Shown here one piece after another: positions 3,001-3,307 of a stretch of 12,329 nt of DNA. The notes under the pieces are model-generated. The model was not told the DNA's origin and made no database searches. It saw nothing but the letters and a program-made list of their open reading frames with translations. Both the position numbers and the translations under genes were made by a program. Positions within the stretch are counted from its first letter, which is position 1, and each line of letters opens with the position of its first letter. Source of the stretch: Escherichia coli (lineage in GTDB: Bacteria; Pseudomonadota; Gammaproteobacteria; Enterobacterales; Enterobacteriaceae); the NCBI RefSeq assembly GCF_003334315.1, contig NZ_QOWR01000084.1. The stretch is one strand, 5' to 3'.

Positions 3001-3307
3001 TACGATACAGGCGAACGTCCACGCCGCCGTACTCTTCCATCTGATAGCGCCGATAATCACGCCCCGGCGCTTCCAGTCGCACTTTCGCCTCTTCACTGCT
3101 GCTAAAACTGCTGTCAGCAAGCAAAAAGAATGTTCCCCCGGCAGGCGGCGCATAGTTGCTGGAAGGAAGCGAATCATCAGCATTAGCAAGCCCTGTTCCC
3201 ACAAGAGACAGGGACAAGCACGCTGCTATCGCGCCAGAAAATTTAAACGATAAATGCCAATGAAATTGGGATTGGAATCGTTGGGTATCCATCGGGTGTC
3301 CTTCCAT
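71..3307 (-). pseudogene. yfaS: Alpha-2-macroglobulin family protein (YfaS-type), N-terminal ~1078 codons; frame ends at TAA 71-73, well short of the ~1500 aa I recall for this family (not measured here), so probably a disrupted gene whose remainder lies beyond the window start
   Basis: Seen: 1078-codon minus-strand ORF with N-terminal signal sequence (hydrophobic [18 protein letters not shown]). It contains [15 protein letters not shown], which resembles the conserved F-x-D-R-x-x-Y-R-P-G motif of alpha-2-macroglobulin MG domains. A second in-frame TAA lies at 59-61, after which the frame reopens. An SD-like GAAGGA sits 6 nt upstream of the second Met (ATG 3290-3292), so the true start may be 3292 rather than 3307. 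Memory: position next to yfaT/yfaA/gyrA matches the E. coli yfaS locus, annotated as a pseudogene in K-12. Confidence 0.6.

Follow-up and report, generated by a model that had tools for sequence, protein, structure and literature searches.

At which codon does translation of yfaS begin, and does the gene truly extend into its upstream neighbour, yfaT? The question is raised by a 12,329-nt stretch of Escherichia coli DNA (contig NZ_QOWR01000084.1 of RefSeq assembly GCF_003334315.1; hereafter the window), which contains the gyrA-yfaA-yfaT-yfaS region of this species, its genes being encoded on the minus strand. The yfaT gene terminates at TAG 3228-3226, while the reading frame of yfaS, which encodes an alpha-2-macroglobulin, is open on the same strand from two ATG codons that lie within yfaT, at 3307-3305 and 3292-3290. 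The initial annotation of this DNA had described an overlap of 67-82 nt, and direct reading of the sequence confirms these figures, with 82 nt counted from ATG 3307 and 67 nt from ATG 3292; the comparisons described below narrow the start to the shorter of the two. We consider it probable that yfaS is translated from ATG 3292 under the direction of a Shine-Dalgarno (SD)-like element, AAGGA, and that the overlap encodes the n-region of a Sec signal peptide, 38 residues long and subsequently cleaved off. Initiation at 3292 is what we infer from the observed anatomy of the sequence, its conservation statistics and the cross-lineage association. The features on which this argument turns are the following.

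3226..3292, minus strand: the 67-nt overlap, which would encode YfaS residues 1-22; its frame relation is identical in all 83 loci compared.
3290..3292, minus strand: the proposed yfaS start ATG, whose A is the last base of the yfaT codon for Arg186 (CGA) and whose TG opens the codon for Trp187.
3299..3303, minus strand: the SD-like AAGGA, 6 nt upstream of ATG 3292, contributed by yfaT Lys183-Asp184 (AAG GAC).
3305..3307, minus strand: the upstream in-frame ATG of the 82-nt option, not a likely start, with no SD element upstream.
3226..3229, minus strand: a degenerate coupling junction, ATAG, which is ATGA in most orthologues, where the start of the alpha-2-macroglobulin gene overlaps the TGA stop.
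3200..3202, minus strand: the GTG start of the RefSeq Prokaryotic Genome Annotation Pipeline (PGAP), 24 nt after the yfaT stop, with no SD element and an uncharged leader of 8 residues.
3179..3292, minus strand: the predicted Sec signal peptide of 38 residues, with the c-region A-N-A and cleavage before DD.
3283..3318, minus strand: a conserved block of 36 nt, yfaT codons 178-189, extending from about -26 to +10 around the yfaS ATG.

Candidate start codons and the predicted signal peptide

The two upstream ATG codons are in frame with one another, 15 nt apart, and no stop codon intervenes before the body of the alpha-2-macroglobulin. The yfaS frame is the -1 frame relative to yfaT, with the first codon position of yfaS falling on the wobble position of yfaT. 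At the junction the window reads CGA TAG, and the junction codon is ATA, so that a coupled junction of the ATGA type is absent. The next canonical start codons in frame, TTG 3217 and GTG 3202, lie past the yfaT stop and within the hydrophobic core of the signal peptide. Among the candidate starts, ATG 3292 alone is accompanied by an SD-like element (AAGGA). As far as the sequence can tell, the yfaS start most likely resolves to ATG 3292-3290, with an overlap of 67 nt.

The leader read from ATG 3292 has the layout of a Sec-type signal peptide cleaved by signal peptidase I. The overlap-encoded n-region contains R5 and K17, and the hydrophobic core, which comprises approximately residues 18-35 and reaches 9-residue Kyte-Doolittle means of up to 2.3, begins about 2-4 residues before the yfaT stop. 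Orthologues share this layout, ending in ..A/ED or DD. The leaders read from ATA 3229, TTG 3217 and GTG 3202 comprise 17, 13 and 8 residues, respectively, none of them charged. After the junction, E. coli retains 17 uncharged leader residues, as against 23-26 that include arginines in Salmonella and Superficieibacter, and these differences in length and charge suggest that Escherichia would now draw its n-region from the overlap. The initial annotation had argued that the overlap is real since no later start would keep the signal peptide; this argument is supported by the orthologues and agrees with the curated annotation of strain K-12. Furthermore, the homologous protein MagD is periplasmic and possesses a signal peptide (PMC3735191).

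A lipoprotein reading of the sequence I-A-A-C (YfaS residues 22-25, window 3218-3229), on the model of the type I bacterial alpha-2-macroglobulin (ECAM/YfhM), was also entertained and rejected, as this motif sits before the hydrophobic core and not after it. Its Cys is a Tyr in Escherichia sp. E1V33 (L005) and is absent in the orthologues of other genera, and type II MagD has been described as lacking a lipobox (PMC3735191).

In the mechanism that we favour, ribosomes would be recruited to ATG 3292 by AAGGA 3303-3299, inside yfaT and in the -1 frame. The 22 overlap-encoded residues and the following 16 would together form the signal peptide, its core straddling the yfaT stop, and a predicted cleavage after A-N-A (A38/D39) would leave no overlap-encoded residue in the mature periplasmic protein. 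Since the overlap segment would be cleaved off and most sequences would be tolerated there, the overlap would cost little, and constraint upon it would be strong but local. The second frame would need a start site, freedom from stop codons, and no excess of acidic residues.

It had further been proposed that the overlap implies coupled translation. In the sense of termination-reinitiation, this proposal is not supported: the ATGA is destroyed (ATAG), and the start lies 64 nt upstream of the stop. From such a distance termination-reinitiation is unlikely to operate, and ribosomes more probably initiate at the internal SD element. It is possible that the genes are coupled in another manner, through unfolding of the mRNA by the ribosomes that translate yfaT.

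Nucleotide-level constraint within the overlap

Statistics of constraint were computed on 58 dereplicated orthologues (under 95% nucleotide identity). In the window the conserved block reads CAA CTT ATG ACA TGG AAG GAC ACC CGA TGG ATA CCC, the second codon being CTY across orthologues. Its wobble positions are nearly invariant, and are filled by codons seldom used in other parts of these genes. The CAA codon is present in 58/58 orthologues, and three further codons are distributed as follows.

CGA (Arg186): 58/58 at this position; 2% of the Arg codons elsewhere in the gene.
ACA (Thr181): 51/51 at this position; 7% of the Thr codons elsewhere in the gene.
ATA (Ile188): 55/58 at this position; 3% of the Ile codons elsewhere in the gene.

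The initial annotation had inferred a dual coding constraint and had suggested codon-level conservation as a means of checking it. The constraint is borne out in the 36-nt block around the SD element and ATG, where synonymous variation is suppressed: mean codon entropy in conserved-residue columns is 0.28, compared with 0.88 over codons 25-177. No other window of the gene has an entropy so low, and not one of 100000 random sets of 8 columns matched it. In the remainder of the overlap (codons 190-207), the entropy is 0.84 and synonymous variation is near normal; beyond the block, the second frame leaves its mark as stop avoidance and a charge bias alone. Wobble T is avoided where a stop would arise in the yfaS frame. 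The overlap-encoded peptide carries a net charge of +1.9, versus -0.2 expected from synonymous resampling, and exceeds expectation in 56/58 orthologues, with fewer acidic and more basic residues than the resampling predicts. Such a bias is what the n-region of a cleaved signal peptide would lead one to expect, whereas the block itself fits a putative internal translation initiation region, conserved along with its AAGGA.

The open frame itself can be compared with chance. Given the YfaT protein and local codon usage, an ATG at the position of 3292 would be expected with a probability of 1-10% per lineage, and it is seen in 58/58; an open frame as far as the junction would be expected with a probability of 0.12-0.2 in the low-GC enterobacterial lineages, all of which are open. 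Judged on these grounds, the overlap is not a chance open frame.

Population data from E. coli agree with extra constraint on the overlap, although the test is a crude one that uses one reference sequence and a single control segment per gene. The proportions of E. coli genomes identical to the window were as follows.

3226-3318 (93 nt), overlap and initiation region: 92%.
3400-3492 (93 nt), yfaT control: 66%.
3080-3172 (93 nt), yfaS control: 30%.

Orthologous junctions across genomes and metagenomes

The comparison of junctions drew on 80 genome loci, from Escherichia, Superficieibacter, Enterobacillus, Yersinia, Edaphovirga and many Pseudomonas (P. aeruginosa PAO1 not among them), which together with three E. 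coli strain loci make the 83 loci mentioned above. Positions are designated below by the length of the overlap that they would give, such that 67 corresponds to ATG 3292 and 82 to ATG 3307.

An overlap might also arise by extension of the upstream gene, and the 3' end of yfaT was therefore inspected. It appears native: in an alignment of 18 diverse homologues all C-termini coincide (..YRLNFLAR/Q), and invariant positions extend as far as L205. YfaT homologues that are 62-81% identical (from Pseudomonas, Serratia, Salmonella, Aeromonas and others) have invariant residues throughout the last 25 positions, and an alignment of 81 sequences over 183 codons contains zero gaps. Extension of yfaT by stop loss is thus ruled out, the C-terminus being conserved to its last residue.

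An ATG is found at position 67 in 83/83 loci and at position 82 in 80/83, and in all 83 no stop interrupts the macroglobulin frame over the 118 nt or more that precede the yfaT stop. About 70 of the loci add a canonical ATGA junction and a complete signal peptide beginning there, for example MTGARMLRICSRIPLLLALLLPLATVNA followed by ED. The junctions of Escherichia, Superficieibacter and Salmonella read ATAG or ATAA, one G>A change from ATGA, in which the start is lost and the stop kept; several Pseudomonas lineages have ATAA or CTGA instead. In Salmonella the ATAA junction is combined with a stop codon between positions 82 and 67, leaving the ATG at 67 as the sole upstream option.

For a wider sample, five distant orthologues (47-55% identity) and the results of a metagenome scan were merged with the genome loci, yielding 115 dereplicated junctions. 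The pattern used for the scan fixed just the amino-acid-determined bases of W-x-D-T-R-W-x-P...N-P-N-F, and is unbiased at wobble positions. ATG, GTG or TTG occupies position 67 in 90/115 junctions, and its presence is associated with that of the SD-like element: a start codon is found there in 75/80 junctions with the element, versus 15/35 without. The state of the frame follows the same division.

Start codon and SD-like element at 67: 75 junctions, of which 75 are open to the junction; about 41 expected by a crude codon-usage model.
Neither start codon nor SD-like element at 67: 20 junctions, of which 10 are open; about 7 expected.

The junctions that have neither feature, typically with W-[PRTSN]-D for W-K-D and CGC TGG at 67, have a start of their own, located at the junction or beyond it, that is followed by a complete signal peptide. 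Conversely, 52/75 of the junctions with both features also retain the junction ATG.

The most informative junctions are those in which a start at the junction could not suffice. For at least 21 junctions, no start upstream of the hydrophobic core is nearer to it than position 64 or 67, and ATG, GTG or TTG is kept at 67. In several of these, among them L090, L094, L100, L167, L085 and L089, the core runs across the yfaT/magC stop or lies before it, so that only an internal start can work there; L089 possesses GGAGGA at the same spacing from the start. Moreover, position 82 is CTG or TTG in many such junctions, including those of L089, L094, L102, L167 and L205, which need an upstream start, and this points to 67 as the working site.

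In the evolutionary scheme that would account for these observations, the internal start is ancient in the operon family yfaA-T-S-Q-P, which corresponds to magABCDEF of Pseudomonas. Most lineages have it alongside an ATGA junction; a G>A change would have removed the junction ATG in Escherichia, Salmonella and Superficieibacter, and Escherichia would also have lost the charged residues after the junction, making the internal start the sole productive one. The possession of two in-frame starts and one cleavage site would explain why the ATGA start was lost in several separate lineages.

Existing annotations of the junction

The coordinates of the overlap are already known from the curated record of K-12 MG1655, in which yfaS (pseudogene b4500) occupies 2329798..2334402 and yfaT 2334336..2334959, an overlap of exactly 67 nt. 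The gene call in the NCBI assembly of Aeromonas cavernicola likewise uses the 67-nt overlap. The apparent novelty lies in the comparative evidence, in an internal initiation block that has been conserved, and in the turnover of start codons. The PGAP product is 1504 amino acids in length (RefSeq proteins WP_000536552.1, WP_000536515.1 and WP_000536505.1), and its GTG start is probably misplaced wherever that model is used. Similar downstream start calls were noted in metagenome and Salmonella gene predictions (L089, L213).

Several points weigh against translation of yfaS from ATG 3292 and should be set beside the evidence above. In each of the three non-K-12 E. coli records that were read, PGAP puts the macroglobulin start at the codon matching GTG 3202, without any overlap. 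The gene is disrupted both in K-12, where it is a pseudogene, and in the window, by IS421, so that some strains are losing yfaS. Salmonella and Superficieibacter lack AAGGA (Lys183 is Asn), and dependence on the SD element is accordingly not universal. The sequences compared are phylogenetically related, such that raw counts overstate the number of independent observations, and the expected numbers of open frames in the 115-junction survey derive from short, small samples of codon usage. Signal peptides were judged by hydropathy scan, charge counts and inspection rather than by a trained predictor. Searches of the literature yielded neither start-site nor N-terminal data on YfaS or MagD. Finally, in lineages with an ATGA junction the internal site might serve another purpose.

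Alternative explanations

That last point leads to the alternative which survives best, albeit as an unlikely one, namely that the block is a rare-codon pause cluster serving the folding or export of MagC/YfaT, or a binding site for RsmA/CsrA, and that the ATG is a by-product, at least in species with ATGA. The block is indeed a cluster of rare codons, its three GGA motifs, in CAUGGAAGGAC and GAUGGAUA, resemble RsmA/CsrA recognition sequences, and species with ATGA are not strictly in need of a second start. The mag operon of Pseudomonas is known to be RsmA-regulated, via the magA leader (PMC3735191). A pause, however, would not require that specific codons be kept rather than just any rare codon, and neither version explains why the start codon co-varies with the SD element and the open frame, or why lineages without a junction start always have a start at exactly this position. 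The third GGA is lost where residue 188 is Gln or Arg, yet the internal start is still needed there. Nor is a hairpin predicted: a 161-nt segment around the junction folds with a z-score of -0.25 relative to shuffled sequences, and the invariance of the block precludes a covariation test. The RsmA idea is, in any case, compatible with an initiation site and not an alternative to it.

As a separate observation, the GGA-rich block (window 3283-3318, and Pseudomonas loci L010-L083) could be a second regulatory site over the internal start. No Rfam match was obtained at E <= 1 in window 2900-3900, and a promoter and terminator scan found none in 3100-3500. A resemblance of ATGACA...GATACC to a promoter, noted by eye, was discarded, as the critical T at -7 is missing.

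Somewhat less probable still is a 4-nt overlap, in which ribosomes would reinitiate after the yfaT TAG at ATA 3229-3227, the remnant of an ancestral ATGA. Near-cognate codons can support weak initiation, and in most orthologues the position homologous to this ATA serves as the start. Termination-reinitiation is also at its best with overlaps of this size (PMC10666635). Nevertheless, the resulting 17-residue leader would be without a charged n-region, and the open upstream frame of the low-GC enterics, with its low probability by chance, would go unexplained. Furthermore, the solution is inapplicable to the other lineages that lack a junction ATG, in which the core lies partly upstream of the stop.

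The longer overlap of 82 nt, with yfaS starting at ATG 3307-3305, is improbable. This codon is in frame and open, and its counterpart in 80 of the 83 genome loci is likewise maintained via rare codons (ACA, AAA). Yet it has no SD element, a start codon is lacking there in several of the lineages that cannot do without an upstream start, and in Salmonella the intervening stop would terminate any product begun at it. Its conservation may merely reflect membership of the initiation-region block.

There is very little to recommend the opposite view, that the genes do not overlap, that yfaS starts at GTG 3202, and that the open frame upstream is an accident of the conserved YfaT sequence. Its support comes from the PGAP coordinates in three strains, from gene callers that behave alike in L089 and Salmonella, and from the rule of Palleja et al. 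(2008) that co-directional overlaps of more than 60 bp are start-codon mispredictions (PMC2478687). The leader would then be MGTGLANA before DD, with no n-region and half an h-region, although the homologue is periplasmic; no SD element lies upstream, and the wobble-invariant block, the conserved ATG and the open frame are all left unexplained.

The least credible alternative, a -1 programmed frameshift yielding a YfaT-YfaS fusion, draws on two heptamers that lie 10-20 nt before the yfaT stop, where a -1 shift would enter the yfaS frame, and on the presence of T_TTA_AAC in Salmonella. The heptamers are not conserved beyond Escherichia and Salmonella, however, and neither Superficieibacter and Pseudomonas nor the other lineages that have no junction start possess them. 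No stimulatory structure follows at a distance of 5-9 nt, nor does the segment as a whole fold significantly. The signal peptide would end up buried within the fusion, and AT-rich Leu-Asn-Phe codons account for the heptamers.

3247-3241 (T_TTA_AAT) and 3244-3238 (A_AAT_TTT), minus strand: -1 slippery-type heptamers in the yfaT frame, found by a heptamer scan and probably incidental.

The yfaA-yfaT-yfaS operon and the state of yfaS in this strain

The remaining features of the locus that concern the two genes are these.

3226..3849, minus strand: yfaT, homologue of MagC (DUF1175/PF06672), 207 amino acids, the TAG stop 3228-3226 included; from translation of the open reading frame (ORF) and the RefSeq annotation of identical strains.
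75..3292, minus strand: yfaS, type II bacterial alpha-2-macroglobulin, homologue of MagD, from the proposed ATG 3292 to the point of interruption by IS421.
1..74, strand not assigned: an end of IS421 (IS4 family), which truncates yfaS and creates an in-frame stop at 73-71.

A 1-kb probe from the locus matched 5391/5426 complete E. coli genomes at 95-100% identity, and the features named under these matches were yfaA (DUF2138), yfaT (DUF1175) and 'alpha-2-macroglobulin family protein'. Both of the overlapping frames belong to conserved protein genes: YfaT has 851 homologues carrying PF06672, and the Pfam domains MG2, A2M_BRD and A2M are found in the downstream products of orthologous loci, in agreement with the RefSeq names.

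The yfaS ORF in the window encodes 1078 amino acids and is that of a truncated gene. When positions 1-700 were used as the query, most genomes matched just 75-700, the first 74 bases being multi-copy. Strain ES3 is identical across all 700 bases, and there the IS421 transposase lies between two alpha-2-macroglobulin fragments.

At its own 5' end, yfaT overlaps yfaA by 4 nt in a canonical ATGA junction (window 3846-3849). In K-12, the stop of yfaS abuts the start of yfaQ without a spacer, and apart from yfaT/yfaS the genes thus follow one another as tightly as is usual in a coupled operon. The K-12 gene order is yfaA-yfaT-yfaS-yfaQ-yfaP, and the same neighbours recur in distant loci. This layout (DUF2138, DUF1175 (MagC), A2M, YfaQ and YfaP, not beside pbpC) places the operon in the type II (Mag/Yfa) class of bacterial alpha-2-macroglobulins described previously (PMC3735191). 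E. coli YfaT and Pseudomonas MagC are 70-78% identical, which is unusually high for Enterobacterales versus Pseudomonadales, and suggests either horizontal transfer of the operon or very strong constraint.

Elsewhere in the window, a 960-amino-acid ORF on the minus strand (9307-12189) belongs to the autotransporter adhesin gene yfaL/ehaC, of which it covers a part. RefSeq records a frameshift in the yfaL of strain 504239, whose sequence matches window 2900-3900 at 100% identity, and this fits an ORF that starts at an internal ATG.

Relation to known overlapping genes and alternative starts

Of the 715 co-directional overlaps of at least 60 bp that they surveyed in 338 genomes, Palleja, Harrington and Bork (2008) considered none real; the longest overlap that they accepted was that of holD/rimI in Enterobacteria, of up to 56 bp (PMC2478687). 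Like yfaT/yfaS, holD/rimI is a same-strand pair in which the downstream start lies well inside the upstream gene, and in both cases conservation is seen at the nucleotide and protein levels and validation is by comparison, not by experiment. The two differ in length, holD/rimI overlapping by 32-56 nt and yfaT/yfaS by 67 nt, and the start position of the latter recurs over far more distant lineages. Moreover, unlike in holD/rimI, the overlapping part of yfaS would encode the n-region of a cleaved signal peptide and not mature protein. The yfaT/yfaS pair would fail the length-versus-orthologue rule of Palleja et al., and the PGAP start at GTG 3202 fits such reasoning.

A second comparison is offered by canonical ATGA junctions, which are found in the orthologous magC/magD pairs of most Pseudomonas, Yersinia and Aeromonas, as well as in the yfaA/yfaT junction described above. 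In yfaT/yfaS the start half of this arrangement is destroyed, and 64 nt is too far for the short-range reinitiation known from pairs of this kind (PMC10666635). With respect to the operon as a whole, the protein families and their order match those of magABCDEF from Pseudomonas aeruginosa (DUF2138, DUF1175/MagC, A2M, YfaQ, YfaP), with YfaT 70-75% identical to Pseudomonas MagC in this comparison, whereas the E. coli operon has five annotated genes, no separately annotated magB, and a junction that has lost its start. Two papers on the Mag system (one of them PMC3735191) give MagD a 21-residue signal peptide starting from the junction, and do not mention an internal start in magC. The literature retrieved on yfaT and yfaS consists of nearly all unrelated uses of the names, with one table row from a riboswitch screen that does not bear on the junction.

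The arrangement also resembles that of alternative in-frame starts which give rise to the same mature secreted protein, in that many lineages have both the 67 and the junction starts and one cleavage site. As either precursor would yield the same mature protein, neutral turnover of the starts is allowed. Unlike the usual alternative starts, however, the upstream one here lies within another gene, in the other frame, and its use in species with two starts is conjectured from these comparisons.

Implications

Validated same-strand overlaps of more than 60 nt are very rare in bacteria, and the survey described above proposed that they be handled as errors of annotation, a rule which yfaT/yfaS, on comparative evidence, breaks. 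An overlap of such length would be feasible since the second frame encodes just the disposable n-region of a cleaved signal peptide. The finding is also of practical consequence. A PGAP protein without an export signal would mislead localisation predictions, expression constructs and family alignments, and, given a probable conserved internal initiation site in magC, the deletion or recoding of magC could change the expression of MagD.

A broader proposal, which we put forward tentatively and think less likely than not to hold in full, is that the internal SD element and ATG constitute the ancestral, and perhaps the main, initiation site of type II alpha-2-macroglobulins across the gamma-proteobacteria, Pseudomonas MagD included. 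On that view, the N-termini as annotated would in most instances be too short, and so would the '21-residue signal peptide'. The internal start and the coupling ATGA junction would be redundant, both feeding one cleavage site, and would have permitted repeated and nearly neutral loss of the junction start in several separate lineages, and the GGA-rich block could also be a second point of RsmA/CsrA control within the operon.

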